Part shown: piece after piece, positions 29,027-62,534 of the stretch
Position numbering within the stretch: position 1 is the stretch's first letter
Layout of the letters: each line of letters begins with the position of its first letter
Virus record (IMG/VR): IMGVR_UViG_3300027815_000003
Coordinates: 1 to 64,000 of that record
DNA: 64,000 nucleotides
Direction: 5' to 3' (one strand)
Source: a virus
The notes under the pieces: generated by a model
Database searches by the model: none
Told to the model about the DNA's origin: nothing
Seen by the model: the letters and a program-made list of their open reading frames with translations, nothing else
Program-made: the position numbers and the translations under genes

Positions 29027-29100
29027 TGGTTCCCGATGAGAGATTCAAACTCCCCTTTAATGATCCAGAATCATTCGTGTTATCGCTGCACTAATCGGGA
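29027..29100 (-). tRNA. tRNA-Gln(CUG)
   Basis: TCCCGAT/ATCGGGA-A-CCA; AATGA-TTCTGGA-TCATT; T loop TTTGAAT. Confidence 0.85.
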
Positions 29101-29113
29101 AAATTTATATTAT

Positions 29114-29187
29114 TGGAGCGAGTTATCGGATTTGAACCGATGAATCAACTTTGGAAGAGTTGCATATTGCCACTATATTAAACCCGC
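29114..29187 (-). tRNA. tRNA-Gly(UCC)
   Basis: GCGGGTT/AACTCGC-T-CCA; CAACT-CTTCCAA-AGTTG; T loop TTCAAAT. Confidence 0.9.
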
Positions 29188-29188
29188 A

Positions 29189-29263
29189 TGGCTCCTTCTG
29201 CTGGTGACGCTCCAGCCACATCCAAATTAACAGTTTGGCGTTCTACTGCTGAACTAAGAAGGA
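29189..29263 (-). tRNA. tRNA-Asn(GUU)
   Basis: TCCTTCT/AGAAGGA-G-CCA; CCAAA-CTGTTAA-TTTGG; T loop AGCGTCA. Confidence 0.88.
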
Positions 29264-31307: not shown

Positions 31308-32930
31308 CTAAATCTGTATTTTTTCTATTTCCTTTATCAAAGCATTTTTATCAGTTTCAGCAAACTTAATAAGATCAAATATTTTTTCTGACCACCCAGC
31401 AACAAGAACTACATTTTTATCAAACATTTTATTACCATAACCTTTTAGGTCTACAGAATATATTTTTGTTTCTGGACTAAATTTTAGATAATTCTGAACT
31501 AATTTGTCAAAGTGTGGGCCACCTTTTACTCTTGTGGTATCATACCATCTACAACCATCACCAACTTGACAATCAGAAAAAATAATTACTCTTTCTACTT
31601 TTTCTTTTTCCTCTATTAATTTTTCAAAGGCAGTAAAAATTCCAGTTTCGGTACTACCACCGACAGTAGCTGCCACTTTATTTATTTCACTAAAATTCTT
31701 AAAAACACCGTTTTCTCTATTTAATTTTGGCGTCTTTAGTGTATCCCCAAATAATCCAACCCATGTATTTTCAGCTTTTGCCCAATATAATGTAGCAAAA
31801 AGATTAGCAATATCAGCCGAAGTTCTCTTTGACAAAGCTGATACTAAAGAGCCACCGCCAATATCTCCTCTCATGCTTCCACTATTATCTGAAAGAATGA
31901 CTGTTTTCCCTAGTAATTCTGGTATATTATCTACTGATTTTAATACAGCAGATTCTATGGCTCTTTTTACTAATTCAATTCTTGATATATCATTTTTCTC
32001 AAAAATGATAGTTTTGTTTAAATATGGGGTACTTAATTTTTCTACTTCTGCATAGGCCGAAAGAAATCTAAATGGTAATTGTTTTGAATTCAAAACAGCT
32101 TTTTTGTTAGCAACAGCCTTTAATATTTTATTAAAATGTATATCATCTACTTCTACCTGAAGTATATTTCTTAGATTTCTCAATAAAGCCATATAATTTT
32201 TCACAACTAAATTTTGCCCATCATAAGTTACCCAGATATCAATCTGTTTTTCCCAAGCATCTTTTTTGAGTTCTATTTTTTCTTCTTCATTAAGATTTTG
32301 TTCTTTGGCTACCTGCCCAACACCAGAAATATTTACTTCCCATGTTGTGTCAGATTGTTTAAGTTTACCATTCATTAAATCATTATATGTTTTTGACATA
32401 GTATCATTAATGGGTTTAGGATGGACTAAATTAAAAACATCAACCAATGATACTTTTCTATTTTCTCCCCGATAATGTGAAAGCTGATATGTATCAAACT
32501 TTATTAAGGCAGAAGCTACACCCTTTTTAACAGCATTAGGAACTGGTTTACCGACATAGGCAACCAATTCAGTTAAATCATCGACTCTTTCTGCACCAGC
32601 AAAAATAGCATTTTTTACAATACTATCACCTTTATGAACTTTAGATAATTCCCCCATAATAACCGAAAAGGCAGAACGCATATGAAAAACATTTCTTACA
32701 TAAATAGCTAATTTAGCTACAAATAATGGATCTCTTTTTGCTATTTCTTTAATTAATCCAGAAACCCTTTCTATTCTTGACTCTTTTGATTCATAATAGG
32801 AATCTTCAAAAAATGAAGTTAAAACAGAAAAAATAAGTTCTTCTTTGGGAGTTTGTTTGTAACTTTCTTCTCCCATATAATTAGTTGTTAAATTTGTTCT
32901 TGTTTCTTTCTTTTCATTAAATTTAGCCAT
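31308..32930 (-). CDS. Ro60/Rsr-like TROVE domain RNA-binding protein
   Basis: TNYMGEESY, TSFFEDSYY, LAIYVRNVFHMRS, TWEV, ALLRNLRNI, QLPFRFLSAY, vWA DNSGSM, IIFSDCQ. Confidence 0.92.
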   Translation of the reverse strand: MAKFNEKKETRTNLTTNYMGEESYKQTPKEELIFSVLTSFFEDSYYESKESRIERVSGLIKEIAKRDPLFVAKLAIYVRNVFHMRSAFSVIMGELSKVHKGDSIVKNAIFAGAERVDDLTELVAYVGKPVPNAVKKGVASALIKFDTYQLSHYRGENRKVSLVDVFNLVHPKPINDTMSKTYNDLMNGKLKQSDTTWEVNISGVGQVAKEQNLNEEEKIELKKDAWEKQIDIWVTYDGQNLVVKNYMALLRNLRNILQVEVDDIHFNKILKAVANKKAVLNSKQLPFRFLSAYAEVEKLSTPYLNKTIIFEKNDISRIELVKRAIESAVLKSVDNIPELLGKTVILSDNSGSMRGDIGGGSLVSALSKRTSADIANLFATLYWAKAENTWVGLFGDTLKTPKLNRENGVFKNFSEINKVAATVGGSTETGIFTAFEKLIEEKEKVERVIIFSDCQVGDGCRWYDTTRVKGGPHFDKLVQNYLKFSPETKIYSVDLKGYGNKMFDKNVVLVAGWSEKIFDLIKFAETDKNALIKEIEKIQI

Positions 32931-37352: not shown

Positions 37353-38060
37353 TCATTCCCAATAATTTCTCCTTATATTAATAAGAAAATCGTTGACAGG
37401 TTCAAGGTTCTTTTCTTTATTTGGATTTTCTTGATATGCTTTTTCTAATTCAGCTTTTAATAATTCAGAAGTATTTATAATTTGTCCTATATCAATTACA
37501 CCATTTTTAACATCCATTAAATAAGCATTCCAAGCATGATGTTCTTTTAATCCGATTAAGACATCATATTTATTTAATACCTCTACTGAAAAAGTCCCAG
37601 TTCTTAGTAATTCAATACCCTGGATTAAAACACGCAAATGCGCTACAGCAAGTTTTGAACGTTCTTTAAAAGCATTTGATTCATTAAACATCCTCTTCTG
37701 CTGTGAATGTGAGTAGCCCGTATAGGCATTATATATACCCTTACTACTCCAAACATAAGGAAACAAACTTCTTAATTCTTCTGCCATTTTTATATTATCA
37801 GATTCAAGAATTGGAGATTTAAATAATTCTAAAATAGTGGGGTTGCTGGATAGTCCCAAACGCAAAAGATGTTCGACTTCCATAGACATATTATCCTCAT
37901 CTTCTCTTATTGTTTGTTTTATTTTTGGTTCTGGCCCAATTTCTAATAATCTAGATGTAGGCCAGAGAAATACAGATTTAGTATCTATATCGCTAAATTC
38001 ATTCGCCAAATTATAAGCCCGACTTCCAACAAGGCATTTCATTATTGTAAAATTTTTCAT
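37353..38060 (-). CDS. predicted nucleotidyltransferase (polymerase-beta superfamily, YcgL/RlaP-like)
   Basis: VGSRAYNLANEFSDIDTKSVF (GS...DxD); SSNPTILELF; AHLRVL. Confidence 0.85.
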   Translation of the reverse strand: MKNFTIMKCLVGSRAYNLANEFSDIDTKSVFLWPTSRLLEIGPEPKIKQTIREDEDNMSMEVEHLLRLGLSSNPTILELFKSPILESDNIKMAEELRSLFPYVWSSKGIYNAYTGYSHSQQKRMFNESNAFKERSKLAVAHLRVLIQGIELLRTGTFSVEVLNKYDVLIGLKEHHAWNAYLMDVKNGVIDIGQIINTSELLKAELEKAYQENPNKEKNLEPVNDFLINIRRNYWE

Positions 38061-42988: not shown

Positions 42989-44659
42989 TTATTTTGATAA
43001 ATCCCTAAAGACTCTCTTTATTTTTTCTACATCATGTGGCTTATCTTTCTCGTCATAATTATTAGTTACAATGTTCGCATTCGGAAAATTATGCTTAAAT
43101 GGTTTACTAAAATCCTCTTCTTTTACATCTGGCATCCCCAATTCTTTTCTAAACTGTTCAAATTTCTCCATCCTACTTTCGTGGTCTTTTAGAATATTCC
43201 TTTCTTTTTCTTTTTTCTGTTTTTGTATCATTTCATTAAATACCTCTAAGGCATTTTTTGACATATCTATTGTCCCTCCATTTTTTATGTTCAGATTTTC
43301 TGAAACATCTACATAACTATTTGATTCATCAATACCAATAGGCTCTAATATTACTCTAAAAATAGGGATTTCTTCCCCAGTCATTAATTCTTCACTTAAT
43401 ATTTCTATCGGTATTTCTCCGTCTATTTCTTCTCTTATTTCACTTATTATATTTTCAATTAAAGAATTTGTTCTATCTGTTTTTATAATTATCTTAGGTG
43501 TTTCAGAATCATCTAAATAAACATAAAATCCTGGAACTTCTAAACCATGTTCACTAATTACATCTACTATTTCATCAATACTTATCTCTGTTTTTTCTTC
43601 TTGATTGTCATCACTTTTTATAATATTAAAAACAGCACCTTCATTCGCTGGATGAGAACATATACTCAATTCAAGGAGATCTAGTCCGCCAACTTTTGAA
43701 TAACTTTTCCCATTTTTTTCTATTTTTTCAATATCTTTTCCACTTCCAGCTATAGAATAAGAGCGTAATGACCCATTTTCTATTTCTTCTCTTACTTTTT
43801 TAGAAATAGAAACATCGTCACGTATCTCCCCTATACACCAAAGTTGTTTATCATCAACACCAGATTTATAAATATACCCACTTTTTGATATATATGCAGG
43901 TAAAACCCATCCACATTGAGCGTCAGAATGGAGAATATTTAAATTTCTACCTCTAAAATTTAACATAAAACGACGGAAAGCATCATCTAATACTTCAGTT
44001 GGGATTAGATGTCCTTCTTTATCAATCATTTCTACTGATGCTGGACCACCAATTACAAGAGGTTCACTCCCTGGTTGATCTAAGCCCATTTTTATAACCG
44101 CTTGTGCATATTTAGGTTCATCTGGATAAAATCTAAATAACGTTAATAATTCCGCTTTTGAAATAAGTCCAGCTTTAAATAAATTTTCATATTCTTTTAT
44201 TGCTGGAAGAATATCTTCTTTTATTGTACGCCCTACATGCTTTTCTTGTTTTTCTAGTTGAACAAATCCAGTATCTTCAGTAAAAAATGCATTAAAATAA
44301 CCTCTATTTACTTGTCTTACTGGACTTATTGCATCATTCCCAGCTAAAGCATCTAATTCTTTCTTTATAAATACATAATCTGCAGATGGATAAATTTTTT
44401 GTAAAATTTCTTCTCCGCCCTGATGAATAGCATGTGCTACAGAATCTATAGCAAGACTAGCATTTAAATTACTCGGAACTGATTCTACGAAATTTTTCTT
44501 TATTTCATGCGATTTGTTATGTTGTTTACAAATAAAATCTGGGATATTTCCTATTCTATTTTGTAAATCCCAATAAAGGTCAATAATTTCTTCATCTCTT
44601 ACTATTTTATTAGAAGCAATTTGCTTATAAATTCTAACAAATGAATTAGCGTTACTCAT
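42989..44659 (-). CDS. prohead protease (HK97/XkdF-type) with N- and C-terminal extensions
   Basis: IGGPASVEMIDKEGH, LNILHS, IENGSLRSYSIAG, LLELSICSHPAN. Confidence 0.8.
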   Translation of the reverse strand: MSNANSFVRIYKQIASNKIVRDEEIIDLYWDLQNRIGNIPDFICKQHNKSHEIKKNFVESVPSNLNASLAIDSVAHAIHQGGEEILQKIYPSADYVFIKKELDALAGNDAISPVRQVNRGYFNAFFTEDTGFVQLEKQEKHVGRTIKEDILPAIKEYENLFKAGLISKAELLTLFRFYPDEPKYAQAVIKMGLDQPGSEPLVIGGPASVEMIDKEGHLIPTEVLDDAFRRFMLNFRGRNLNILHSDAQCGWVLPAYISKSGYIYKSGVDDKQLWCIGEIRDDVSISKKVREEIENGSLRSYSIAGSGKDIEKIEKNGKSYSKVGGLDLLELSICSHPANEGAVFNIIKSDDNQEEKTEISIDEIVDVISEHGLEVPGFYVYLDDSETPKIIIKTDRTNSLIENIISEIREEIDGEIPIEILSEELMTGEEIPIFRVILEPIGIDESNSYVDVSENLNIKNGGTIDMSKNALEVFNEMIQKQKKEKERNILKDHESRMEKFEQFRKELGMPDVKEEDFSKPFKHNFPNANIVTNNYDEKDKPHDVEKIKRVFRDLSK

Positions 44660-44749
44660 ATTTATTTTTGGGGGGCATTACAATTTGGACATATAAATAC
44701 CCCATCTTTAATCCTCCATGTACTCAAATGATTTTTTTGAGTACATTTA

Positions 44750-45400
44750 TTACAGGTTTTGTACATTATTTCCCAACATTGTTTTCATAGTTTCTCTGTC
44801 CATTATTTTGTCTGCAAGACCATAAGAAATAGTTTGGGATGCGTCAAAATAAGATTCATCAAGTAAATCTTTTTCTATTTGTTTTTTGGTTCTAATGATT
44901 CCATTTTCTAACATAACATTGACTAAAGAATCAGTTAAAATTCTTAAGTCTTTTGTTATTTTGTCCATTTTTTTAACATTTCCACCCTCAGTATGTGTAA
45001 TTTGGGGAAAATGCACCATTGACCATGAATTTTTAAAAATATACCTATGTCCAGGCTCCCCAGCAAGCAATAAAAATGCACCCATAGATAAACACATCCT
45101 ACCAATGGTATAAATTGGTGCTTGTGACGTTTTCATAGCATCATATAATATCATTCCTTGATTCACATCACCGCCAGGACTATTTATTATTAACCAAATA
45201 GGATCATTAGAAATCATATTTAATGCCATAATTGTATCGGCAATTACAGGCGCATTAAATATATCTTGTCTACTGTAATATTCTGGTGAACTATGACTTC
45301 CAACGATAGGGCCATCTAAAAATAGAATACGTTTTTCACCAAGAACCTCATAAAGTCCTTTAAGTTGATCCTGTCTTTCATTTCTCGTACCAAATATCAT
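44750..45400 (-). CDS. clpP: ATP-dependent Clp protease proteolytic subunit
   Basis: IINSPGGDV, CLSMGAFLLLAG, MVHFP, YFDASQTISYGLADKI. Confidence 0.9.
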   Translation of the reverse strand: MIFGTRNERQDQLKGLYEVLGEKRILFLDGPIVGSHSSPEYYSRQDIFNAPVIADTIMALNMISNDPIWLIINSPGGDVNQGMILYDAMKTSQAPIYTIGRMCLSMGAFLLLAGEPGHRYIFKNSWSMVHFPQITHTEGGNVKKMDKITKDLRILTDSLVNVMLENGIIRTKKQIEKDLLDESYFDASQTISYGLADKIMDRETMKTMLGNNVQNL

Positions 45401-45673
45401 TAATTATTTTCCCTTTCTTTCTTCTATTTATTTTACAAACTTATTTAGAAATTCTTCTTCAAAACCATAAAGTTTTGAATTTAATAATGTCCTTACACTC
45501 GTCCATTGTCTATCATTGGTTGTTTCTGGAATAGAAGCCTGAACCACTTCTAAAATTTCTCTTATTAAATCTCTATAACGATAATCAAATTTTTCTTGAT
45601 TTTCAGTTGTTATTAAATGTGCTAATGAACTTGGTTTTTTCTTTCTTTCTTCTACCATATTATCTACTCCTTT

Positions 45674-46171
45674 TTATTTTAATCCTGCTTTAAGATTTTT
45701 TCTTAAATCTTTTATAAAACTCTGAAACCCTTCTTGTATCGCCCTAGTTAGGAAAAATTTACCTTCTATTTTGGGCCATTTACTTATTACTCTGAACAGT
45801 GTTTTTCCACCTAGATGTAGTGGGATTAATCTTTTATTTTTATATGTTACTGTATATCCTGGGATTACAGATTCAGCTATTCTTACCCCATCCTTTCTAA
45901 GATAACCTTTTCTTTTATGAGATTTAACATTTATGGTCTGATTACCTTTTATCTTTCTTTCTGGTCTCCCAAATTCTTGTGTTGCAGCATACGGAGAATT
46001 ATAATTAATAATAGCACCATTGCTTATTACTGTATATGAACCACTTTTTTTAAGTTTTCCAGATTTTTCTGGTACATTTTGTTGTGACAAGTAAAATATA
46101 TTTTGACTTGTATTTTGTACAGTAGAAATAACTACCTCTCTTATTAATTTAATCAATTCTCTATTATTCAT
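45674..46171 (-). CDS. HK97 gp10-like neck/tail-completion protein
   Basis: VPEKSGKLKKSG...YNSPYAATQEFG...FFLTRAI. Confidence 0.6.
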   Translation of the reverse strand: MNNRELIKLIREVVISTVQNTSQNIFYLSQQNVPEKSGKLKKSGSYTVISNGAIINYNSPYAATQEFGRPERKIKGNQTINVKSHKRKGYLRKDGVRIAESVIPGYTVTYKNKRLIPLHLGGKTLFRVISKWPKIEGKFFLTRAIQEGFQSFIKDLRKNLKAGLK

Positions 46172-47207: not shown

Positions 47208-48565
47208 TATTTTATATTATCTGCCCATATGTCTGGTAAAGCATCAACAAATTTATTATTAGACTTATCATATTCTTGTAAATAAATAATCTCTTTATCT
47301 ATATAACCTAAACGTGGATGCCAGGTTGTTAATATTTGTGTGGGTTTTGATATTGTATGTAATTTAGAGAAGGAATATTCATCTCCGCCTTTCATACAAG
47401 GGCAAATAAATAACGTCCCAGTTCCGATATCTATTTCTGAATTATTATGAAAATGGCCCACCATTACACTATCAAAAAATTCAGCCATTACACCCAAAAC
47501 ATCTTGTTCTGTTGCTTTATTCGCAACCAATTTTTCTATTTCATATTCAAGGCCCCTTCTAAACTGGAAAACTTGACGTAATTGTGCAATAGCCCTCAAT
47601 AAACCATAAAAAGGGATCCCGTTCCAGGCTTTAGCAGAATCTCCATGCATAATAAGTATATTTTTCCCAGCGACAGTAAATACATTCAAAAAACTTTTAG
47701 GGATAGAAAAATGTATATTTTTTTGATTTTTACAATAAGCAGCAATCCATTGATATAGTAAATAATCCCAAGAAGAATAAATCTCTTTAGCTGGTGGTTT
47801 TTGAGTCATTCTTCCATGATTCCCTACGACACATGGAACATATACATTTTCATAATTAGAAGAAATATAGACTAACGCCTGACTGATTAAATTAGCCCCT
47901 CGTATCATCTGCCCCATCGCATTATCCGCATTTGTTTTCATTAGCTCTAGATGAATATCCCCACTAATCATATCCCCAAGCATAGGAACATATAAATCTG
48001 GAACATTGGCATAAGTTCTTCTGAAACCAGTAAGCGTCACAACCTCTTCGGCCCATCCCCGTAAACGTTTATTAAAAATATCCATATTATAAGAATTAAG
48101 CCCAGCCATTTCTTCTCTATTTACTTTTTCTCCAATATGAGTATCACTTAATGGGGCTACAATATATTGTTTAGAAGACGCCTTTACTAATTTAGGTGTA
48201 TAAGTAACTGGGATAGAAGGAATAGCATTTGTTACTCTAGTGGCAACATCTATCATTTTATCTATAGCAGCAGCATCTTTTACTAAATTATTATATTGTT
48301 GTTTATAATAAGCTGCTTCATTTCTGGCAGTAACTAAATTTTTATCTAATTCAAACTGATTTTTGGAATTTATAAACTGTTCATTAACTGGTATATTTTC
48401 TTTCCCCTTTCTTTTTTCAAATCCGCCATTAAGCCAATCATTAATTGTACTTTGAGGAATTTTTTCCCCTGTTTCTGTTTCTATCAGTCTAGATAACATA
48501 CGATAGCTCATATGTTCTGTATCACGTTTTTTCTTTAATCCATCTATATACTCTTTAGTAATCAA
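47207..48565 (-). CDS. calcineurin-like metallophosphoesterase with N-terminal HTH-like region
   Basis: LSDTHIG, LGDMISGDIH, VGNHG, MHGD, VGHFH. Confidence 0.85.
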   Translation of the reverse strand: MITKEYIDGLKKKRDTEHMSYRMLSRLIETETGEKIPQSTINDWLNGGFEKRKGKENIPVNEQFINSKNQFELDKNLVTARNEAAYYKQQYNNLVKDAAAIDKMIDVATRVTNAIPSIPVTYTPKLVKASSKQYIVAPLSDTHIGEKVNREEMAGLNSYNMDIFNKRLRGWAEEVVTLTGFRRTYANVPDLYVPMLGDMISGDIHLELMKTNADNAMGQMIRGANLISQALVYISSNYENVYVPCVVGNHGRMTQKPPAKEIYSSWDYLLYQWIAAYCKNQKNIHFSIPKSFLNVFTVAGKNILIMHGDSAKAWNGIPFYGLLRAIAQLRQVFQFRRGLEYEIEKLVANKATEQDVLGVMAEFFDSVMVGHFHNNSEIDIGTGTLFICPCMKGGDEYSFSKLHTISKPTQILTTWHPRLGYIDKEIIYLQEYDKSNNKFVDALPDIWADNIK

Positions 48566-49287
48566 CTCTTTTTTATCCTTTCAATCTTATAATCATTATC
48601 TATCAGTAAACATAAATCATCATAATCTACCATTTTTGAGATTCTATTTTCATTTTTAGCTACATATAAATAATCTTCTTTTTCATCATCCCAACTTAAA
48701 ACTTCTGACTTCTTTAACATCTTTTTTAGAATTGCATTTATACCATTATACGACACTTTCTCTTTTCTGTCAAATACAAGTTCTAATTCATGCTTTGTCT
48801 CTTCAAACATATCTGATTTTTGCATTTTAGATAGTGAATCTTCCATAAGTCTTTTTGTTGGTTCTTCTGGTAATATTTTATTTGTTATTATAAAAAATAT
48901 TATATTATCTTTTTGTTTTTGATCTATCAAATCCCAAAAATCTTTTCTTTCCATTGTTTTTAATCTTTCATAATAATCTGGGAATTCCTTAAGATGCGCT
49001 AAAGCAATTTTAGCTACCATAACCAAATCATCTCCAACAACATCTTTATGTTCTGTTTCTATTTCTATCCCGTTTTTTAGTTGTTCTTTATTTATAACAT
49101 TCCAATCTATTCCTAAAACATCACCAACATATTCTAAATCTTCTATTGTAATATTATTTATAGATTTTTCAATTTGGGTATCTTCTTTTTGACCTAATAA
49201 TTGTTCAAAAAAAGATTGTTCAAAATTAGGATCATTTAATTCTTCAAACAAATAAGAAGAATTTTCATTAGATTTTTGTTGTTGCAT
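48562..49287 (-). CDS. DUF5661-containing protein
   Basis: QLKNGIEIETEH...KIALAHLKEFPDYYERL. Confidence 0.7.
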   Translation of the reverse strand: MQQQKSNENSSYLFEELNDPNFEQSFFEQLLGQKEDTQIEKSINNITIEDLEYVGDVLGIDWNVINKEQLKNGIEIETEHKDVVGDDLVMVAKIALAHLKEFPDYYERLKTMERKDFWDLIDQKQKDNIIFFIITNKILPEEPTKRLMEDSLSKMQKSDMFEETKHELELVFDRKEKVSYNGINAILKKMLKKSEVLSWDDEKEDYLYVAKNENRISKMVDYDDLCLLIDNDYKIERIKKS

Positions 49288-52200
49288 TTTTTCTCTCCCT
49301 ATATTGTTTCCCTATTCTATATCCCTCATTATCATCGCTAAGAATTTTTCTCCCTCTCCAGGGTGTATTTAATAACCATGCTTTCCCTATATGTTTACCC
49401 CATTGTGTTTTTGTGGGATTCCAAGAAGCAAATTCCCAAGAATGTGTAAAATTTCCAACTTCTTTAATCATTTTCTCAAATTGTACCTGATTTATAATAT
49501 TTTTTGATAATTTAATTCTTAATGTTTTAATAAAATGATTTTTTATCTTATCTAGATTATATTTACTAACAAAATCATATCCTTGTAATGCCCAAGCATA
49601 ACAACCTATTTCATCTGTATCTAAATCTATTGCATAAACACCGTTTTTTTTATATTCATCTTCCATACTATCCAATAATTTACTTGATATTCCTTTGCCC
49701 TGATAAGATTTTAAAAGACTTAATTGATCGTGTTTTATTATTATTCTTTGTATTCCTTTATTATCTAATTCTCTACTAAATGTTCTTACCATACTACCAA
49801 ATGGGCCACCACTAGAAGGTGTTCGTTCTTTAGTATTATCAAGTAAATCAAAAGAAATACTCATTTCTACATCTAAACTATTTGTTAATTGCGTCATTTC
49901 AACATCTACGTTGTCCATATTGGAGGCAAACATATTTTGTATCGTATCTAATCCCCAGTTTCCTTTTGAAAAACTTCGTATATCTTTGTCATACATACTT
50001 TTAGATGTTTGTAATGTACTATGTAACTGTACAGGTTTCTTCTTTGGTTCTTCTGTTTTTACACTTTCTTCTTTATATTTTTCTGCTTCTTCTGGTAAAA
50101 CCCATCTATCTGGGTGTTGCCAATCTCCGCTTTGTGGGACAAGTCCTGGTCTTGGCGGATTTTGATTTTCTATTTTTTCTTCGCTACCATCTTCTATTAA
50201 ATCTGGTAAATTTGGATTAAATATTCCAACACCTTTAGGGTCTATAAATATTTTCTTATTATCTTCGGATTTTAATATACCAGTAGATAAAAATACATCA
50301 TCTGCATCCCTAAAATACTCAAATATTTCATGCACAGCATCATACATCTGTCTATTTCTTTTTTGGAAATGTTTATTTTGTGTTACAAAAGAAGCATAAC
50401 ATTCTGCAAAAAATTCATAAGCATCTTCTCTTGCATAATCTGTAGGAAAACCAGAATCAGTATTAATACAATGATCATAAATAGACTCTATCTTATCAAA
50501 ATATCTATCTTTAACTTGTCTTCCTACTGTACCATGTAATAGAGAATGCCCTATTTCATGTATTAAATCAAATGAATCTGCACCTTTACTTAACCGAATA
50601 CTATTATTGTCTGGATAATATATTCCAGAAATAGATTTTATTCCTTTACCTAAATTTTTAACCACATCCTCTTCATTATCTAACCAATATTCATTACTTA
50701 TACTTATTTTTGATATTTTTAATAAATGACTGGCTGGTGGGCCACCACTTATTATATTTTTATAATGTGGCCCATTAAACATATCTTTAGAAAAATCATC
50801 AACAACAAGTTGTTTATAAAGAGTTTTTCTTCTCTCTAATTCAAATTCACTTGGTTTAAATAAATCCCCTCTATTTTGGACTTCTCCAGTTTTTCCTTGT
50901 TTTTCTTTCTGTTCTTCAAACCATCTTTGATGAAAATCTACACTAACTGGATGTAAAGGGAAAATCATATTCCCATCTGGATGATTTTGTGGATGTTCTT
51001 CGTGTGTGTGTTGTGCTAATTTACCACTTGTTTCATGTTTAAAGGCAGAAGTAAGAGTCCTAATAGGATTGAAATTTTTAGGAGTAAATTGTTTTTCAAT
51101 TTGCTCATCTTTTCCTAAATTTGGCAATCCCTCTTCAAATCTACCAACACCTTTTGGATCACCAATAGATTCTTTTTCTTTATTTTCTGATTTTGCAATA
51201 CCAAAATTCAAATAATTATCATCAATCCCTTTCATGTGTTCAAATACTTTTTCCATGAAAAGAAATGCTTTATAGTTTCTATCTTTAAATGAAGTTTTTG
51301 AAGTCAAATACGAAGCGTAACATTCGGCAAAAAATTCTCTTTCATTTGTTTTAGAATAATTAGACGGGAAACCCATATTTCTATCTGACGCTTCTTCAAA
51401 TAATTTATGATTTTCTTCCATCAAATCCATCCCTAAAATTCTTCCAATAGTAGAAAGATGGACTGCATGACCTATTTCATGGATTAAAGAAAAATAATCT
51501 GCATCACCATAAAGTTCTATACCATTATTTATAGGATGAAAAAATCCGATATATTGCATCTTTTTAATTTCACCTTTATAGATTCCAACTTCTTTTTCAA
51601 CAAAATCATTTGGATTTAATGATATCCCAGTGAATTTATGTAAATGGTCTGACGGAACCCAGGAAATAATAGCATCGTAGTTTTTGTCATAAAAAACTCT
51701 TTTATCCTGGTCTTGTATTTTATTTTCAAGAATATCTCTTCTTCTCCCTATTTCAAAGTCTTCGGTGTTTCCGTCCTTATCATATCTTTTTTCTGTAATA
51801 TGATGATCTAATTTATAATCATCATTTGACGGGACACCAAAATTAAAAACAGGACTATCTTGTGGTCTCACATTATTTTCTACTTTTCTAAAAAATATAT
51901 TCTCATCTTTAGTTAAATAAATATGATAGGTATCTCCATTAAAACCAAATGGTACAACTAATACTCGTTCTTGTTCATTTATACCAAAATCTTTATCATT
52001 TTTAGGATAATAAAATTGATAGTCCCAAGTAGCCGCGTTAAATATTCTTTCTTTTATTATAGTTTTGTCTAATTCTGAGAGATCAGTTTTATTTCCTATA
52101 AAATCTACTACTTTATTAAATAACCAATTAATTGGTAATTTTTGCTCACCATTATTTTTATACCTTAACTTATTTTTTTCTTCAAATCTTCTTAAAGATT

Positions 52201-54499
52201 CATCTAATTGTTTCTCTTTTATTTTATTAAAATATTCTTCATGGTATTTCACTCTTACTGGATGATATGACATTGGAATATTTCCATCTGGGTGATTTGT
52301 TGGTGTATTAGATTCTGTATGATTATGTAATCCAGAACCTTGCGCCTCTATTGCAATAAACTCACTTTTTTGTAATGGTACTTCTTCAAAAGTATCTCTA
52401 TTTATTTTATGTGTAAAATTTACACTATTGATATCAAAGGCAATTACCTCATTGGATGGAACAGAATTAGAATATTTATCATCTATAATATTGTTCAAAA
52501 TAAGACCGTCATAACCAGAACTTTTAGCCTTATCTATTAATTTTTTCATTGGCAAATTTAACCAAGATACATTTTTAACATCAATTACAAATGGATTTTT
52601 TAATGAAACTTCTCCAGAATAAATATTTTTGCCATACCCATGTGCAGATGTCCAATTATCAGTTAAAAATACACCCTCACCAGTTTCCGAAACATTTACT
52701 TTTGGATTTATGAAATCTGAATCAGAACCATGAAAAATTTTTGCAACAATAGGCTCCCCAGTTTTAGCTTTATGTAATTCTGGAATTTTTTTCGGTTTAT
52801 TTATATTTTCTTGTTTTGCCTGTTCTTTATATTTATTGTGTTGTTCAATAAAATAATCTGGATGATTTTCAACAGATATTGGATGCCTATACCATCCATC
52901 ATGTTCATGTGTTGGTGCAACGCCAGGAACCCCAGCTTCTATCTTAATACTTTTTTGTAAATATTTTTCCTTTACATATTTTAATGCTTCATCTTTATTT
53001 GTTAAAACACCATTTTCTTGTTTATCTTTTATATCTAAAAGAACATTACCTAATTCTTTCCCAGTTTTCATACCTAAGCCAAGTAGATCATTGCCAGTAA
53101 TTAATGGAATTACTTTACCACTTTCTGTCACACCAAATTGTTTAGAAACTTCTTCTAGTTTATTATTAAACCAATCTATTTCTTCTTTTCCAGGATTTAT
53201 TACTGTCCCGTCTTCATTTCTATGTAATCTACCCGTAACATCTGCCTCTGATACGGCAGATAATAATTGAAGTTTGTGCATTCCGTATTTATTTATAGCT
53301 TTTCTAAAAGCCGAATCAGAAGCTCCATCTCCATGAAAAGAAGCTGGCATTAAATGATGTTCTACTATAAATAAAACATTATCTACAATATCAGATTCAT
53401 TAGTTAATTTATCTAAAAATTTCTTAGCAGGTTCTACACCAGCCTCTTCGTGTCCTGGTTGAACTGGATAACCCTTATCACTTATTTTTGTAACTAGAGG
53501 TTTACCAATATCATGTAATAAAGAAGCATACATTATTATTTGTTTGTCTTTTAAATCTGTAAATCTTTTCGCAATTTCTGTAGCTTTATCAACAGTTAAA
53601 AGTATATGGTTCCATACATTTCCTTCTGCATGATAATCTGGTCTTTGTTCTGTTTCATGTAAAACATAAAATTCTGGATAATATCTTCTTAATACATCCA
53701 TAGAATCTAAAGCCTCTAATCCAACAGAAGGTTTAGGAGATTTTAATAATAATTTATTAAACTCTTCAAAAATTCTTTCTTTGGGAAGCTGAGATAAATC
53801 CATAGATGATGCTAATTTTATTGTTTCTGGAGCAATTGTAAATCCAAATCTAGCAGCAAACTGAGATGCACGATATACTCTTAATGCATCTTCCACAAAT
53901 GTTTTATCATCTATATGTCTGATAACTTTATTTTTTAAATCTTCTTCTCCTCCAAAAAAATCTAGCAATTGATTAGATTTTATATCAAACATTAATGCAT
54001 TTATTGTAAAATCACGTCTTCGTGCGGCACTCTCTGGTTGCATAAATGGATCTTCGGTTACTTCAAAATCTGTATGTTTTTCACCAATTTTTGATTCTTT
54101 TCTTGGTAAAGAAATATCAAAATTACCCACTTTAAATACAGCAAATTGAGCACCCACCTGCTCACTTTTTGCTCCCAATTCGTTATTTAATATATATCCT
54201 AATTTGTCTTTAGGAATTCCATAAACTTCTATATCAAAATCTTTAGGAGCAATTCCAAGTAAGGCATCTCTTACACCACCACCTACTAAACAAGGATTGC
54301 CATATTTTGATAAAACATTTGTTACTTTCGTTAAATCTACATCATTAAAAATAAATTGTTGTATATTTTTAACCGCAGTAAAAAAATCTTGATGATAAAC
54401 CACTCTTACAGGATGCTCTAACCAGCCATCATGTTTATGATAAGCAACTTTTTGCTTCATTATTAAGTTTTCCAGTATATTTAATTTATTTATTGTCAT
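49268..54499 (-). CDS. 1743-aa polyvalent protein: CCA-adding enzyme (NTase+HD), ART-like domain, two zincin metallopeptidases, GNAT acetyltransferase
   Basis: VGGGVRD..DFDIEV, RRDFTINA, EDALRVYR, HDIGK; FHGS...GVFLTD; two LIHEIGH...Y...EFFAECYAS; YQGKGISSKLL. Confidence 0.85.
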   Translation of the reverse strand: MTINKLNILENLIMKQKVAYHKHDGWLEHPVRVVYHQDFFTAVKNIQQFIFNDVDLTKVTNVLSKYGNPCLVGGGVRDALLGIAPKDFDIEVYGIPKDKLGYILNNELGAKSEQVGAQFAVFKVGNFDISLPRKESKIGEKHTDFEVTEDPFMQPESAARRRDFTINALMFDIKSNQLLDFFGGEEDLKNKVIRHIDDKTFVEDALRVYRASQFAARFGFTIAPETIKLASSMDLSQLPKERIFEEFNKLLLKSPKPSVGLEALDSMDVLRRYYPEFYVLHETEQRPDYHAEGNVWNHILLTVDKATEIAKRFTDLKDKQIIMYASLLHDIGKPLVTKISDKGYPVQPGHEEAGVEPAKKFLDKLTNESDIVDNVLFIVEHHLMPASFHGDGASDSAFRKAINKYGMHKLQLLSAVSEADVTGRLHRNEDGTVINPGKEEIDWFNNKLEEVSKQFGVTESGKVIPLITGNDLLGLGMKTGKELGNVLLDIKDKQENGVLTNKDEALKYVKEKYLQKSIKIEAGVPGVAPTHEHDGWYRHPISVENHPDYFIEQHNKYKEQAKQENINKPKKIPELHKAKTGEPIVAKIFHGSDSDFINPKVNVSETGEGVFLTDNWTSAHGYGKNIYSGEVSLKNPFVIDVKNVSWLNLPMKKLIDKAKSSGYDGLILNNIIDDKYSNSVPSNEVIAFDINSVNFTHKINRDTFEEVPLQKSEFIAIEAQGSGLHNHTESNTPTNHPDGNIPMSYHPVRVKYHEEYFNKIKEKQLDESLRRFEEKNKLRYKNNGEQKLPINWLFNKVVDFIGNKTDLSELDKTIIKERIFNAATWDYQFYYPKNDKDFGINEQERVLVVPFGFNGDTYHIYLTKDENIFFRKVENNVRPQDSPVFNFGVPSNDDYKLDHHITEKRYDKDGNTEDFEIGRRRDILENKIQDQDKRVFYDKNYDAIISWVPSDHLHKFTGISLNPNDFVEKEVGIYKGEIKKMQYIGFFHPINNGIELYGDADYFSLIHEIGHAVHLSTIGRILGMDLMEENHKLFEEASDRNMGFPSNYSKTNEREFFAECYASYLTSKTSFKDRNYKAFLFMEKVFEHMKGIDDNYLNFGIAKSENKEKESIGDPKGVGRFEEGLPNLGKDEQIEKQFTPKNFNPIRTLTSAFKHETSGKLAQHTHEEHPQNHPDGNMIFPLHPVSVDFHQRWFEEQKEKQGKTGEVQNRGDLFKPSEFELERRKTLYKQLVVDDFSKDMFNGPHYKNIISGGPPASHLLKISKISISNEYWLDNEEDVVKNLGKGIKSISGIYYPDNNSIRLSKGADSFDLIHEIGHSLLHGTVGRQVKDRYFDKIESIYDHCINTDSGFPTDYAREDAYEFFAECYASFVTQNKHFQKRNRQMYDAVHEIFEYFRDADDVFLSTGILKSEDNKKIFIDPKGVGIFNPNLPDLIEDGSEEKIENQNPPRPGLVPQSGDWQHPDRWVLPEEAEKYKEESVKTEEPKKKPVQLHSTLQTSKSMYDKDIRSFSKGNWGLDTIQNMFASNMDNVDVEMTQLTNSLDVEMSISFDLLDNTKERTPSSGGPFGSMVRTFSRELDNKGIQRIIIKHDQLSLLKSYQGKGISSKLLDSMEDEYKKNGVYAIDLDTDEIGCYAWALQGYDFVSKYNLDKIKNHFIKTLRIKLSKNIINQVQFEKMIKEVGNFTHSWEFASWNPTKTQWGKHIGKAWLLNTPWRGRKILSDDNEGYRIGKQYRERKNATTKI

Positions 54500-55422: not shown

Positions 55423-56454
55423 TTAGTTTTTGAAAGCACCAATATAATACTCTAATTTTTCTTCATTTTCAGATATAATAGATTTGTTTATTTTCCACCA
55501 GTTTATTCTATCTATTAAATCCATTTTTCTTATTTCTTGTATTTCATTATTCCAATTACTTTTTTCTACATCTTTTGTAAAATCTTTTACTATTATTTTT
55601 TTATCTTTATCCCAAACTTCTATTCTATCAAATTCAAATTCGTCTTGTGGTATCTCTTTATTAGGTAATTCTTCATCTTTTTCTATATATTTTAATGTAA
55701 TATGTGGTGTAAAAATTGGGAAATCGTTACTTACAATTAATCTTTTTTCTTCCATTACTGGGATGAGTGCATTTCTCCATTCGTCTATTCCAGGAATAAC
55801 AAGTGTCGCAACTACTGCAGATTTAACATCACTTTCTTTTGTCCCAAATTTTTCTAACTTCCCAGTTAATTTACCAATAGAAGGGGGTAAAGAGAAACTA
55901 GATATAATTTCTACTACATTAGAATTCCAGGGATAAGGAAGAAAAACAAGAGTAACATGCATATTCTCTTTTTTCTCTCCACCATCTATATATAATTTAT
56001 CTTTTATGTTTTGTGGGGGGATTAATACAATAACTCCACCTTTATAATCTATTTTATTATCATCTTTTACTTTAGTTTGAGATAACTCATTACTTTTTTT
56101 TGGTTTATCTACTTTATTACCGCTTCCTATTTTAACCCATCTAGTTCCCCAAGTAATACCCTTTGCTGTTTTTATTGGAACTTTTCTTTTTATTAATTTT
56201 GATCTATCTCTATGTGGTGCGGAGTCTATTCTGGGTCTACCTTCCATAGTTTCTGGGATAGTATGTTGTTTATTCAAAGTTTCTACAAATTCATCTAGCT
56301 TTTTCTTTTTTTTATCTGGGCCAAGTCCAAATGTAGGGGTAAAAACATTACTATCTGTAGTTACAAAACTACCAGAATCACCACCATCTTGTTTTTGGAT
56401 ATCTTCTTCTTTGTTTTTTATTAATTCAATAAATTTATTTAACTGTTCTCCCAT
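55423..56454 (-). CDS. 2H phosphoesterase (Acb1-like) with N-terminal extension
   Basis: GGEKKENMHVTL and FTPHITL (two HxT motifs); next to the portal gene. Confidence 0.8.
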   Translation of the reverse strand: MGEQLNKFIELIKNKEEDIQKQDGGDSGSFVTTDSNVFTPTFGLGPDKKKKKLDEFVETLNKQHTIPETMEGRPRIDSAPHRDRSKLIKRKVPIKTAKGITWGTRWVKIGSGNKVDKPKKSNELSQTKVKDDNKIDYKGGVIVLIPPQNIKDKLYIDGGEKKENMHVTLVFLPYPWNSNVVEIISSFSLPPSIGKLTGKLEKFGTKESDVKSAVVATLVIPGIDEWRNALIPVMEEKRLIVSNDFPIFTPHITLKYIEKDEELPNKEIPQDEFEFDRIEVWDKDKKIIVKDFTKDVEKSNWNNEIQEIRKMDLIDRINWWKINKSIISENEEKLEYYIGAFKN

Positions 56455-56459
56455 ATTTA

Positions 56460-59400
56460 TTATTCCTCTTCAAAATAATCATTATCTAATGGTTTCTTGG
56501 GTATAAGTTTAGGTCTAATAGGTTGGGTCTGAACTGGTCTTTGTATATTAATTTCTTCAATTTTTATTAATTTACCAATAGCATCAAAAGAAGATACATA
56601 ATCTTTCCCATTCATTACAAAATAAACTCTATTCCCTTCATTATTAACATATTTTATTACTGGTGCGGTATACCCAGAACTAATTATTTGATTTATCCAC
56701 CCTCTTTGTTGTGTATCTACATCTGTAGAAAGGGCAATAGGAGGTGTAGATTCACCACCACCAATATCATCAGTACCAGTTGGATTAGTACCACCGAACA
56801 TAGCTTGTTGTGGATTCATTGCTTTACCAGAAACAATAAAATCAATATCATCAACACTACTTCCACTAGAGCGGATTTCCACATTAAATCCCATATTATG
56901 TAATTGGGAAGCTATTGCAGTTCTTTGTTGTGCAAAAGCAATTCTAGTCTGTTCTGATTTTTCTTCTGGTTGTGGTAAATATAATATCCAATCTGTTATT
57001 CCAAAAGCATAAAGAATTTTAGGGAATACTTTTTCGTGATATATTCTTTGATATCCTTCAACAACACGAGACATGACCACAAGCTGCTGGCTCTGTGAAC
57101 CGATACCACCACCAGAATCGGATGATGCCTGCCATACTGGAGTAACACCCCAAATTTCTGCAATTCTTTCTCTTATTTCTTGACGAACTGGTAAATACTC
57201 CATCTCTTGTAAAGTATGGAATAATCTTACCATATCAACACGACCTCTTTGATTTCTAGAGGATACCGCAACCATAGGGATATAATTATTATCCTGTCTG
57301 GTTTTGTTTTCCATTTCCTTTTGTGCTTTACGAACACTCTCAGGATCGTCCGTAAATACCATTATCATGGAATTTTTTCCCCAAACAGATTTACCATTTC
57401 TTCTTATAAATAAATTACCATGTGGAATTTCGACACAATAAACTTTACCATTATAATCTATCCATTCGTCATCATTTCTTTGTGTATTGACAGCTGCATT
57501 AAGAACTTTGGTAGAAAATTCCAAATAGTACATTCTATGCCAAGAAGGGTGCTCTGGGAAATCAATTATTCTATAATTACATGCCATTCCCAATTTAATA
57601 GCTATTTCCATTAAATCGTCTTTTAGCTGTATAGAACTTGTACAACAAACATCACCAAGTACCCAAGCATCAAATAATATTCTAAGTTGATCCTTAGATA
57701 ACGATAAATATTCTTTGGGAATAAATCTATCTACAGAATGACCAAATTGTTTTACATAATTTGATAATCTTACATCGTCGCAATGAAAACCACCTTTATC
57801 TACTCTCCATTTAAAAGGAAGTTCATTTAAATCTTTTTCTATTATAATTCGTTTATCTGGTGTTGTTTGTGCTATTGTAACACAAGTTTTTCTTACGCTA
57901 CCTTCTGATAAATAATAACCAAGAAATTTTAACCAAGAATTCATATTAATAATTAATTCTGGGTGATAGACTTCTTTATTAAAAGTAGGAAGAATAAATT
58001 TTTCATTATTATTAAATTCTTTAATATCATTATAAACATAATTATCAACACTTCTTTTTAATTCATTTCTATGTTTAGAATTATACTTAGAATCAATTTG
58101 TAAAAATGATACAGCAGTATCAACGAAAATCTTTTGAATATCAATTGGCAATAACTTGATATAATCTAATAGTTTTACTTTATCTATTTTATATAGAGAT
58201 AACCAATCATATAGTTGTTTACTACATGCTGATATTTTCGCATCACCATTTACCCAATTAAGTTTTATATTAGATATTATTTCCATTACTTTATCTAGAT
58301 AAACTTTATTTTTACCAGTAGATAAATAAACACGATTACCATTAACTATATAACCAAGAGAATACCAACAACCTAAAAATTTAGCCCAATCAACATAAGA
58401 CAAATTTATTTCATCCACATATCCATTAATATGGGAACCTTCTCTTAACACAAAATTATCTTTATTCTCTCCATTCCATTTAGCCCCACCACGAAGATGA
58501 TAAAGTTTTTTACCTTTTGCTTCTTCAGCCGTAATAGTAAAAAACTTTCCCACACTCCCGCTTTGTTTTTTAACCATCATTCTATGATTTGGTGTAACCA
58601 ATAAATTTATATAATGATTCTTTACAGAATACATTTTTCCATTATAATCATATTCATATACTTTATTGGGTTTTTCATATAATAAATTTTTATCATCATC
58701 TATTGTTATAAATTCACTATTATAATCAATATCTTTAAAATACTTCCAACCATCTTTTGTTAAAACTTCTGTTTGTTCATCATAACAGGCTGGCATTTTA
58801 CGGTTCCAAAAATAATTATACATATTTGAGTCCATCCCGATTAACGTCATCGCTTTATCCATGATAGTAAACACTGGACTTATACCCCAAAGTTCACCTG
58901 GGGTTAAATGTGAGGCATGTATAATCTCTGAATCAGTTAAATAGACATCTTTTCCCCTATGATGTAAGATATACATTGCTGGAACTAATTTTCTTCCGCA
59001 CTGTAAACAATTACCAGGTAATGAAGAAATTTCTTCATCTCTATGTAAATAACAAATAAAATGATTATTTTTAGGAAGTCCTTTTGCGTCTAGATCAAAG
59101 TCTATATCGGCTGGACTCATATTCCTTATTTCTATAACTTTAGAACGAACACTTCCCGTAATATCATCACTAAAATACTCTTTTACAACATAAAGGAGAC
59201 CATCATCTAATACCGCTAAATTAATATTAAATGCTTTTAATATTTCTTCAAACGAATTATCAAAAATATTAGCATCATTTAAATATAAATTAAATCTCTC
59301 TTTTTGTTTTTCATCTGGTTTAACTAAAGATTCGCTTCCGCATTTTTCGCATAATTCTTTTGTTTCACTATATTCTGTATTACAATTTTCACATTTTACA

Positions 59401-59708
59401 ACAAAACGAGGCTTCCAGGTTATCCCTCTTCTAAATACTTCCGAAGTTACATGCTGTATCGGGGCGCGAATTTCTGAAACTCTTGCATATAAACGAATAA
59501 ATTCTCTTAATGTCTGCATTCTTGCAGGCCCCTGATAAATACCATAAACACCCCAGTTCATGGTAACATCATTACCTATCGTTGGGGATTGAGCAGTTTC
59601 ATTTATAGCTTTTGTTATATTAACAAATTCAGTAATTTCATTTAACTTAGAAGTAGCCTTACTGAATTCTGACATTTCTGGAAATAAATCTTTTACCTTT
59701 TTAACCAT
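56460..59708 (-). CDS. phage portal protein with intein and Zn-ribbon insertions
   Basis: DDGLLYVVKEY, YLTDSEIIH, LWGISPV, MEYLPVRQEIRERIAEIWGVTP; position next to head genes. Confidence 0.8.
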   Translation of the reverse strand: MVKKVKDLFPEMSEFSKATSKLNEITEFVNITKAINETAQSPTIGNDVTMNWGVYGIYQGPARMQTLREFIRLYARVSEIRAPIQHVTSEVFRRGITWKPRFVVKCENCNTEYSETKELCEKCGSESLVKPDEKQKERFNLYLNDANIFDNSFEEILKAFNINLAVLDDGLLYVVKEYFSDDITGSVRSKVIEIRNMSPADIDFDLDAKGLPKNNHFICYLHRDEEISSLPGNCLQCGRKLVPAMYILHHRGKDVYLTDSEIIHASHLTPGELWGISPVFTIMDKAMTLIGMDSNMYNYFWNRKMPACYDEQTEVLTKDGWKYFKDIDYNSEFITIDDDKNLLYEKPNKVYEYDYNGKMYSVKNHYINLLVTPNHRMMVKKQSGSVGKFFTITAEEAKGKKLYHLRGGAKWNGENKDNFVLREGSHINGYVDEINLSYVDWAKFLGCWYSLGYIVNGNRVYLSTGKNKVYLDKVMEIISNIKLNWVNGDAKISACSKQLYDWLSLYKIDKVKLLDYIKLLPIDIQKIFVDTAVSFLQIDSKYNSKHRNELKRSVDNYVYNDIKEFNNNEKFILPTFNKEVYHPELIINMNSWLKFLGYYLSEGSVRKTCVTIAQTTPDKRIIIEKDLNELPFKWRVDKGGFHCDDVRLSNYVKQFGHSVDRFIPKEYLSLSKDQLRILFDAWVLGDVCCTSSIQLKDDLMEIAIKLGMACNYRIIDFPEHPSWHRMYYLEFSTKVLNAAVNTQRNDDEWIDYNGKVYCVEIPHGNLFIRRNGKSVWGKNSMIMVFTDDPESVRKAQKEMENKTRQDNNYIPMVAVSSRNQRGRVDMVRLFHTLQEMEYLPVRQEIRERIAEIWGVTPVWQASSDSGGGIGSQSQQLVVMSRVVEGYQRIYHEKVFPKILYAFGITDWILYLPQPEEKSEQTRIAFAQQRTAIASQLHNMGFNVEIRSSGSSVDDIDFIVSGKAMNPQQAMFGGTNPTGTDDIGGGESTPPIALSTDVDTQQRGWINQIISSGYTAPVIKYVNNEGNRVYFVMNGKDYVSSFDAIGKLIKIEEINIQRPVQTQPIRPKLIPKKPLDNDYFEEE
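57372..58787 (-). mobile_element. intein (472 aa) in the portal protein
   Basis: Starts CYDEQTEVLTKDGWK; VTPNH block B; ends FIRRNGKSVWGKN followed by Ser. Confidence 0.88.
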
Positions 59709-61361: not shown

Positions 61362-62534
61362 TCAATCACAACGAGACCAACCGCATTTCTTGCACCTCAT
61401 ACATCCCTCTTCAAATACTAATTTACTATTACACTGTAAACAAACCTCTCCTTTAGGAACTTCTGTACCATCTTTTATGTATTTTTTAAGTGTCCTTGCG
61501 ACACCAGATTGCCAAGAAGATAATGGACTTTCTCCATTAGTAAATGAAAGGGACTGTACGGTTGATATAACATATTGTAATGGTTGTCCATGTCTTAATG
61601 CCGCCGAAATTAATTTACCGTATCCCCAGTATTCTTTATTAAAAGCTGTCCCTAAGCCCTTTATAGATATTTCATTCCCATTTTTATCTATATAAATAAA
61701 CTCATATCTCCCTTCCCCCTGTATCCCGCTATTTTTTCTTATTTTACCTTTTTCTACATAAAGAGGAATTGGAAATTGCTCTAATTTACCAGTAAATATC
61801 TCATATGGCTTATTATTTAAAAGTCCCGTAAAAGCAACCCATTTTTCTTTATTATTAATAAATCTATTTACATCAGCATCCAAAATTTTAGGACGTTTCG
61901 GAGCATTATTTTCTTTAAAAATATTTTCTATTTGCACAATTCCAGTATCATTTTCATCTACCAATACACCAGATCTAGAACCATCTCTATAAATAGTAGC
62001 CCCTTTACAACCAGATTCCCAAGCAAAAAAATAAACATCACTAACCATTTCTGGTGTAACTGTTTTAGGTAAATTTTGGGTGCTGCTTATACTATGTGTA
62101 ATTTTAGATTGTATTGCCGACTGTATTTCAATTCTTTTTTTCCAATCTATATCCATAGCTGTAGATTTATAATATGGACTGTCTATTATATTATTTTTAC
62201 CAGTTAAATCCATCCATAATTTTAACTTATTGTGATAAACAACATACTCTTGCCAAGAATCTCCATTTTGGTCTACAAAATCAATTTTTATATTTTTATC
62301 ACTAGGATTTATTTTTCTTCTACGTTTATAAGAAAGAGAATAAACTGGTTCTATTCCAGAAGATGTCTGAGAAAGAATTGACAAACTATTATGAGAAATT
62401 ATTTTATTTTCTAATAAATAGTTATGTGTATTCTCAACTTCTATATCCATAGTATATTCTATACAATCTTGTTTACTTATTATTTCTATTTCTTCGTATT
62501 TTAAATTTGAAATATTAATTATGTTTTCCATCAT
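61362..62534 (-). CDS. nrdJ: split-intein C-fragment fused to the C-terminal part of a class II ribonucleotide reductase
   Basis: 49-aa IntC ending NKIISHN, then SLSILSQTSSGIEP, ITHSISST, GCKGATIYRDGSR, TSCPD-like region, EEGCMRCKKCGWSRC. Confidence 0.9.
   Translation of the reverse strand: MMENIINISNLKYEEIEIISKQDCIEYTMDIEVENTHNYLLENKIISHNSLSILSQTSSGIEPVYSLSYKRRRKINPSDKNIKIDFVDQNGDSWQEYVVYHNKLKLWMDLTGKNNIIDSPYYKSTAMDIDWKKRIEIQSAIQSKITHSISSTQNLPKTVTPEMVSDVYFFAWESGCKGATIYRDGSRSGVLVDENDTGIVQIENIFKENNAPKRPKILDADVNRFINNKEKWVAFTGLLNNKPYEIFTGKLEQFPIPLYVEKGKIRKNSGIQGEGRYEFIYIDKNGNEISIKGLGTAFNKEYWGYGKLISAALRHGQPLQYVISTVQSLSFTNGESPLSSWQSGVARTLKKYIKDGTEVPKGEVCLQCNSKLVFEEGCMRCKKCGWSRCD

Follow-up and report, generated by a model that had tools for sequence, protein, structure and literature searches.

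We identified in the DNA of an uncultured phage a gene for a 1,743-aa multi-enzyme protein, P0001, in which four of five modules are headed by copies of a His-rich tag. The gene lies in IMGVR_UViG_3300027815_000003, a virus contig of 190,284 bp, the first 64 kb of which (positions 1 to 64,000) form the window analysed here, and its open reading frame (ORF) occupies 49268..54499 on the minus strand, which holds nearly all genes. The genome has a GC content of ~30% and an estimated completeness of 94% (CheckV). On our best reading of the sequence, P0001 would be a variant of the polyvalent (capsid-cargo) proteins with an undescribed header tag. We favour, with confidence about midway between doubt and acceptance, the reading that P0001 is a phage polyvalent protein, an effector chain encoded in the head locus that would be loaded in the procapsid and released with the DNA, the headers acting as handles. 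Of this reading, the sequences establish which domains P0001 has, that the tags form a family, where the gene lies and that the phage tRNA genes encode CCA; that the protein is packaged and cleaved and that the tag binds metal we infer, as we do the specificities and targets of the enzymes.

The modules of P0001 follow the order CCA-type nucleotidyltransferase plus HD domain, ART-PolyVal-like domain, two paralogous zincins and GNAT-fold domain. This five-module arrangement, proposed in the initial annotation, was confirmed by the domain matches on one open 1,743-aa frame, the ART-like and GNAT domains scoring below threshold in Pfam. The four related His-rich tags of that annotation (Tag A) are likewise present, at aa 1-40 (54380..54499; an N-terminal helix and a His hairpin, YHKHDGWLEHPVRVVYH, then ..FF), aa 517-550 (52850..52951), aa 714-757 (52229..52360; a long form with an NHPDGN insert) and aa 1151-1194 (50918..51049); these and all further parts of P0001 are on the minus strand. 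The pattern HP[VI][RS]V..H has four copies in the six frames of the 190-kb genome, all of them in P0001. A repeated linker of the pattern DPKGVG..F...LP.L follows both zincins as annotated, at aa 1112-1131 (51107..51166; IGDPKGVGRFEEGLPNLGKD) and aa 1418-1437 (50189..50248; FIDPKGVGIFNPNLPDLIED), and also stands behind the zincins of P0002, P0003, P0006, P0014 and P0016. The claim that a tag of one kind opens every module holds for the four His-rich copies and fails for the fifth module, which is headed by a different, Trp/Pro element, PPRPGLVPQSGDWQHPDRW, at aa 1440-1471 (Tag B; 50087..50182; PPRPGLVPQSGDWQHPDRWVLPEE). Tag B was ruled out as a variant of the His tag (hhalign probability 0.45%).

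The His-rich tag proved to be a real protein family. A profile built from six tag copies and searched against 1.84 billion representative proteins matched 54 proteins at E<=1e-3, seven of them at E<=1e-10, and with this many matches in a set of that size the tags are not due to chance. The best tag copy begins within the first ~50 residues in 35 of the 54 proteins, and other tag-bearing proteins hold two to four internal copies. Among 45 tag-bearing proteins searched with Pfam, the tag stands ahead of, or between, domains that include PI3/PI4-kinase-like (5), NUDIX (4), ADP-ribosyltransferase exoenzyme (3), topoisomerase IB (2), 2H phosphoesterase (2), ATLF zincin (2) and DRAT-like (2) domains, and further DUF72, SNF2/ResIII helicase, HNH and GNAT. 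Many tag bearers are solo enzymes whose chain lacks a zincin; the solo tag proteins P0138, P0158 and P0167 were found on short contigs only. Seven tag positions are invariant in 30 sequences (H, H, H-P, V, H, [YW]F), and the core invariant across 66 unique tag copies is H-x-H ... H-P-[VI]-x-V-x-x-H-x-x-[YW]-F. The residues before the core follow a majority pattern, W-[IL]-[EK]-K-Q-[KR]-[VR]-[AG]-Y, none of which is invariant in the 66 copies, and a low-complexity linker usually comes after the tag. An AlphaFold model from 30 aligned copies has a helix at 5-15, a beta-hairpin at 20-30 and a second helix at 36-49, with a predicted local distance difference test score (pLDDT) of 82; a Foldseek search of the PDB with this model returned nothing below E=4.6. 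Because four invariant His residues surround the hairpin, they probably form a metal site.

In P0002, the only near-length homologue of the non-CCA part of P0001, the zincin and its linker are followed by a GNAT between two Trp/Pro tags, then by an unassigned stretch, and the His tag with topoisomerase IB comes last. This order, together with the range of tag partners, suggests that the headers travel with the modules, whatever the enzyme. Judged by these sequences, related uncultured phages share the His-rich tag as a header of many effector-type enzymes that are unrelated to one another. A strict DNA pattern for Tag B matched 18 IMG/VR stretches, many with multiple copies inside ORFs of 1,000-3,400 aa, and His tags and Trp/Pro tags are found together, within single proteins as well as on single contigs. 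One 92-kb contig, IMGVR_UViG_3300037722_000409 (loci L017, L022, L024 and L026), carries at least seven Trp/Pro tags over several large ORFs.

P0001 lies among virion and packaging genes, flanked by genes for a portal, a neck protein and two head proteases. Upstream are the portal gene, apparently interrupted by an intein (56460..59708, minus strand; phrog_18178 portal, 1.8e-29), a 2H/Acb1-like phosphoesterase gene (55423..56454, minus strand; LigT_PEase 7.8e-5, Acb1 5.3e-4) and two endonuclease VII/HNH genes. The portal and intein-splicing Pfam matches of the first are both below their cut-offs, and its product matches annotated archaeal-virus portal genes by tblastn. Downstream follow genes for a DUF5661 protein, an SbcD-like exonuclease, the neck protein, a ClpP-type head-maturation protease (216 aa; 44750-45400, minus strand) and an S78-type head-maturation protease (within a 556-aa protein; 42989-44659, minus strand), the last three covering 42989-46171. 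In the relatives P0007, P0014 and P0013 the gene order is ribonucleotide reductase (RNR), portal, cargo genes and prohead protease, the cargo genes being DUF192, NUDIX, topoisomerase IB (TopoIB), SNF2 and CCA. P0007, 58% identical to P0001 in the CCA part, has a MuF domain in the same chain (33.1 bits, Pfam cut-off 29.6), and P0005 joins MuF to a zincin of the P0001 type. The 2H/Acb1-like gene likely belongs to the same cargo set as P0001: its protein has a header with a long hairpin (LIKRKVPIKTAKGITWGTRWVK, 56131-56196), similar hairpins occur in P0002 and P0015, and 2H domains are fused to the CCA module in P0072 and P0082. The DUF5661 gene (48562-49287, minus strand), directly downstream of P0001, is probably another member of the set, and a DUF5661 domain is fused into the CCA polyproteins P0038, P0053 and P0097.

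These features bear out the likeness to phage polyvalent proteins noted from the sequence at the outset: the chain is multi-domain, its locus is that of the portal and head proteases, and relatives are fused to MuF. P0001 combines unrelated catalytic domains in one chain (nucleotidyltransferase, HD, two zincins, GNAT fold and an ART-like domain), as do polyvalent proteins, in which ART-PolyVal and GNAT domains occur, genes lie near the portal and head genes, and the zincin is the central shared domain, proposed to release the others (Iyer 2017, PMC5512222). The partner domains of the tag match the effector repertoire described for such proteins. The only nucleotidyltransferase in that account is a minimal Pol-beta type in conjugative elements, and its text has no class II CCA-adding enzyme and no short header peptide at module borders (Iyer 2017, PMC5512222).

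Phage T4 has a capsid-targeting sequence on the internal proteins IPI-III and Alt that is removed by the prohead protease gp21 (reviewed in PMC9026906). Like it, the His-rich tag is a short N-terminal peptide on unrelated proteins of one phage, here putative cargo, ADP-ribosyltransferase included. The two are unrelated in sequence: the tag here is a predicted folded helix-hairpin-helix of ~35 aa with four invariant His, is repeated inside polyproteins and has no leader ending in a gp21-type (L/I)-x-E site, and the head proteases are of the S78 and ClpP types, not of the gp21 family. The likeness to T4 is one of putative function only. In phiKZ-like giant phages such as SPN3US many ejection or inner-body proteins are packaged with the genome, and head-locus precursors are cut by the head protease (PMC5694885, PMC10052503). 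The propeptides there end in short cleavage motifs, whereas the tag here has no invariant cut-site residue, and the enzyme content differs, P0001 offering putative tRNA repair, zincins and GNAT.

The first module of P0001 is a CCA-type class II nucleotidyltransferase (52982..54289) with a head at aa 71-194 (PolyA_pol head, 3.4e-20), a neck at 219-277, an HD domain at 295-420 and a tail at 467-506; PF01743, PF12627 and PF01966 all score above their Pfam cut-offs. The class II CCA-adding head motifs GGxVRD, DxD, RRD and EDxxR are present and accompanied by the HD domain, with GGGVRD at 73, DFD at 87, RRD at 160, EDALR at 202 and LLHD at 327 intact. The module matches PHROG 2244 tRNA nucleotidyltransferase at 7e-71, and the best of the NCBIfam models for it is NF008137, multifunctional CCA addition/repair protein (179.7 bits), with an alignment that reaches into the HD domain. 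It is the only PF01743/PolyA_pol-head match in the genome. All ten predicted tRNA genes of the phage (contig G000:C1) encode their 3' CCA, and seven of them lie within the window (for example 1867-1959 and 29027-29263); two, for Ile-tat and Trp-cca, are unusually long (93-94 nt). Since every tRNA gene encodes CCA, module 1 is not needed for maturing these tRNAs, and the evidence favours the role put forward in the initial annotation, repair of tRNA 3' CCA ends, over maturation. The E. coli Cca repairs trimmed or damaged tRNA ends. Compared with this type of enzyme (NF008137), the P0001 module has the same class II head motifs, neck and HD phosphohydrolase and likely the same repair role; it differs in that a His-rich header precedes it and the rest of a 1,743-aa chain follows it. 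The CCA-adding specificity of module 1 is a prediction from its sequence. The 2H enzyme opening cyclic-phosphate ends, the HD phosphatase and the CCA-adding head would together make a coherent end-healing path.

Stand-alone phage CCA enzymes (35% identity, loci L002-L004) have no header, and the closest GenBank phage CCA enzymes (H1-H3) are stand-alone, untagged proteins of ~450-500 aa. Long proteins holding the CCA part are common among metagenomic clusters: we found 113 matches, about 100 of them fusions of 911-2,540 aa with the CCA(+HD) module at the N-terminus, at the C-terminus or in between. Fusion partners include MuF, DUF192, NUDIX, topoisomerase IB, ART-PolyVal, GNAT and SprT, and further 2H/Acb1, ParB, NDK, ligases and DUF5661. 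A literature search found no paper on a fusion of CCA-adding enzyme and polyvalent protein, and in a 2021 survey of jumbo phages CCA enzymes figure as RNA repair genes only. The impression that a CCA-adding enzyme is unusual cargo thus stands for the searchable published literature and does not extend to metagenomes, where more than 100 clusters carry such a fusion.

The ART-PolyVal-like domain spans aa ~576-716 (52352..52774; PF18760, 2.6e-4, sub-threshold), its Pfam match at aa 580-647 scoring 22.2 bits against a cut-off of 31.2. Language-model look-alikes of this domain score 0.92, and PF18760 clusters make up 25 of the 30 matches. His 590 is present (IFHGSD starts at aa 588), as is an acidic residue in NEVIAF. 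Module 3 contains a zincin, as annotated, and in addition an N-terminal region of ~150 aa (aa 758-905; 51785..52228) that had gone unmentioned; it has no assigned family, and it has no Pfam match, no BLAST relatives and no match above 0.79 in a language-model atlas. Zincin 1 (aa 906-1110; 51170..51784) has P..H at 949, HEIGH at 1007 and EFFAE at 1055, and zincin 2 (aa 1196-1416; 50252..50914) has them at 1255, 1314 and 1362. The two are paralogous (40% identical, E 3e-34), with ATLF/Peptidase_Mx1/M78-like Pfam matches around aa 1006-1084 and 1302-1393. HEIGH, EFFAE and P..H are family invariants in alignment A6, and P..H matches the extra strand-2 His of the phage-type polyvalent metallopeptidase, placing both zincins with that clade (Iyer 2017, PMC5512222).

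The GNAT-fold domain at aa ~1499-1743 (49271..50005) was assigned from an AlphaFold2 (AF2) model and Foldseek. Its Pfam match (aa 1587-1630) reaches 19.3 bits against a cut-off of 20.7. The AF2 model has a pLDDT of 76 and a predicted template-modelling score (pTM) of 0.72, and its top Foldseek matches are all GNATs, namely NatC, AAC(3) and the tRNA-acetylating toxins TacT/AtaT (best 5.5e-5). The acetyl-CoA motif of the family, Q/R-x-x-G-x-G/A, appears as QGKGIS at 1600. Homologous C-terminal modules occur in P0002, P0003, P0129 and P0141.

The proposal of the initial annotation, a virion-delivered kit whose tag is a packaging or ejection signal, is plausible and supported in part by these comparisons. 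On the favoured reading, P0001 would be expressed late from the head locus as a chain of effector enzymes that most likely enters the procapsid and reaches the host together with the DNA. The portable header of ~35 aa on each enzyme module would mark it as a unit, four modules having the helix, His-rich beta-hairpin, helix form and one an unrelated Gly-Leu-Val-Pro...Trp/Pro hairpin. These headers would be the likeliest handles for capsid loading, for module separation or for both, and separation could be carried out either by the two built-in zincins or by the phage S78/ClpP head proteases. Perhaps the two tag types and the two head proteases are connected. After release, the nucleotidyltransferase plus HD module would rebuild damaged tRNA 3' CCA ends, aided by the neighbouring 2H phosphoesterase, and the ART-like and GNAT modules would modify host targets.

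Several observations weigh against this reading. The phage is uncultured, and P0001 is known from sequence alone. The tag was not found in 50,697 GenBank phage records, so no cultured model is at hand. Two unrelated tag types stand at equivalent module borders, which makes a single, simple receptor for both less likely. We looked in the 66 copies for a protease cut site ahead of the tag and found majority residues but no invariant one, so the sequence does not reveal such a site. In HK97 the protease cuts after hydrophobic-x-Lys, which is at most a tentative lead here. No major capsid gene was recognisable beside the locus or in the window, nor by PF05065, and no MuF domain (PF04233) was found in P0001 or in the six frames of the genome. 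At the strand-2 position of the ART-like domain, Phe replaces the catalytic Tyr of the family, and the domain may be inactive. The score of module 1 is far below the NF008137 equivalog cut-off of 451 bits, and PDB sequence scores do not separate a CCA-adding enzyme from a poly(A) polymerase.

An explanation that we consider unlikely is that P0001 is not packaged at all and acts in the cytoplasm, as a multi-enzyme protein produced during infection to maintain tRNAs and take over the host, its place in the head locus reflecting late co-expression only. The tags would then be metal-stabilised spacers or folding units that separate domains, or nucleic-acid binders, a generic structural role that two unrelated types at equivalent positions would fit. 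Such a protein would also agree with the lack of MuF or any other known head-anchoring domain in P0001 or elsewhere in the genome, and with the non-structural genes (HNH endonucleases, SbcD-like exonuclease) interspersed in the same stretch. However, the portal-cargo-protease order is kept in three relatives, MuF is joined in relatives both to this CCA module and to this zincin, the domain repertoire matches that of proteins proposed as injected, and single-domain proteins, which need no spacer, bear the tag at their very N-terminus.

Equally, the tags could be mainly processing or latency elements, either recognition sites for the zincins or pro-peptide-like inhibitors, by which the enzymes would be freed from the chain by cutting or would stay inactive until release, with something else responsible for capsid loading. 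The role proposed for zincins as releasers of other domains (Iyer 2017, PMC5512222) would suit this, as would the retention in both zincins of HExxH, the downstream Glu and the family invariants, the constant spacing, in alignment A6, between each zincin core and the tag of either type upstream of it, and the conserved DP.GVG..F.P.LP linker after each zincin. We nevertheless regard it as improbable: the chains of the many tag-bearing solo enzymes lack a zincin, the residues around the tag show nowhere the invariance expected of a scissile site, and the four invariant His, the Pro, the Val and the Phe, lying in a folded hairpin, look more like a structural or metal site. That module 1 is instead an offensive or regulatory RNA-tailing enzyme, poly(A)-polymerase-like or a partial CCA adder, acting on host RNAs early in infection seems to us quite improbable. 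Its best PDB sequence match is indeed E. coli poly(A) polymerase (2.2e-22), with CCA-adding enzymes close behind (3.6e-21), and the PcnB subfamily model matches it as well; yet at 114.9 bits that model is behind NF008137, which extends through the HD domain, the module has the HD domain and a weak tRNA_NucTran2_2 match in its tail, the PcnB C-terminal domain is not among the Pfam matches, and the PHROG family matched is that of tRNA nucleotidyltransferases.

Further features of the window were noted beside these genes. The apparent intein of the portal gene is ~440 aa long, the sub-threshold Intein_splicing match covering aa 329-769, and the tblastn matches of this stretch are large-phage records without portal annotation. 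A C-terminal piece of the RNR large subunit (61362-62534, minus strand) opens with the end of an intein splicing domain, and the RNR gene therefore seems to be intein-split too; endonuclease-like ORFs lie near it. The endonuclease VII/HNH-like genes between the 2H gene and P0001 (54486-55404, minus strand) are tandem paralogues of 162 and 145 aa and look like homing-endonuclease insertions in the cargo locus. A motif of the 2H/Acb1-like protein, GGDSGSFVTTDSNVFTPTFG...KKKKK (around 56326-56346), is also found in P0006, a zincin protein unrelated to it. The S78-type and ClpP-type head protease genes adjoin each other (42989-45400, minus strand). A 540-aa protein of PHROG 850, 'RNA-binding protein' (31308-32930, minus strand; 3.5e-41), and a separate 235-aa nucleotidyltransferase (37353-38060, minus strand; phrog_388, 1.2e-24) suggest further RNA-handling functions in the phage.

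More tentatively, and with doubt prevailing, the favoured reading can be extended: the His-rich header would be a portable, metal-dependent label for loading and release that is sufficient to bring any protein into the capsids of this clade of uncultured phages, and the 2H, HD and CCA enzymes would form a preloaded kit that counters tRNA-3'-end defences in the first minute, the defences being toxins that pyrophosphorylate, tail or trim tRNA ends. How a phage chooses the proteins that it packs and injects is understood for a few model phages only. A header that precedes dozens of unrelated enzymes, both in solo proteins and at each junction within giant polyproteins, would be a concrete candidate for such an address or release label, and if it acts as one it could be used as a tool for loading cargo into capsids. 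The presence of a tRNA repair enzyme in a protein predicted to be injected, in a phage whose tRNA genes carry their CCA, suggests that tRNA-end damage is a common first-line defence, for which these phages, if this is true, prepare ahead of any gene expression.

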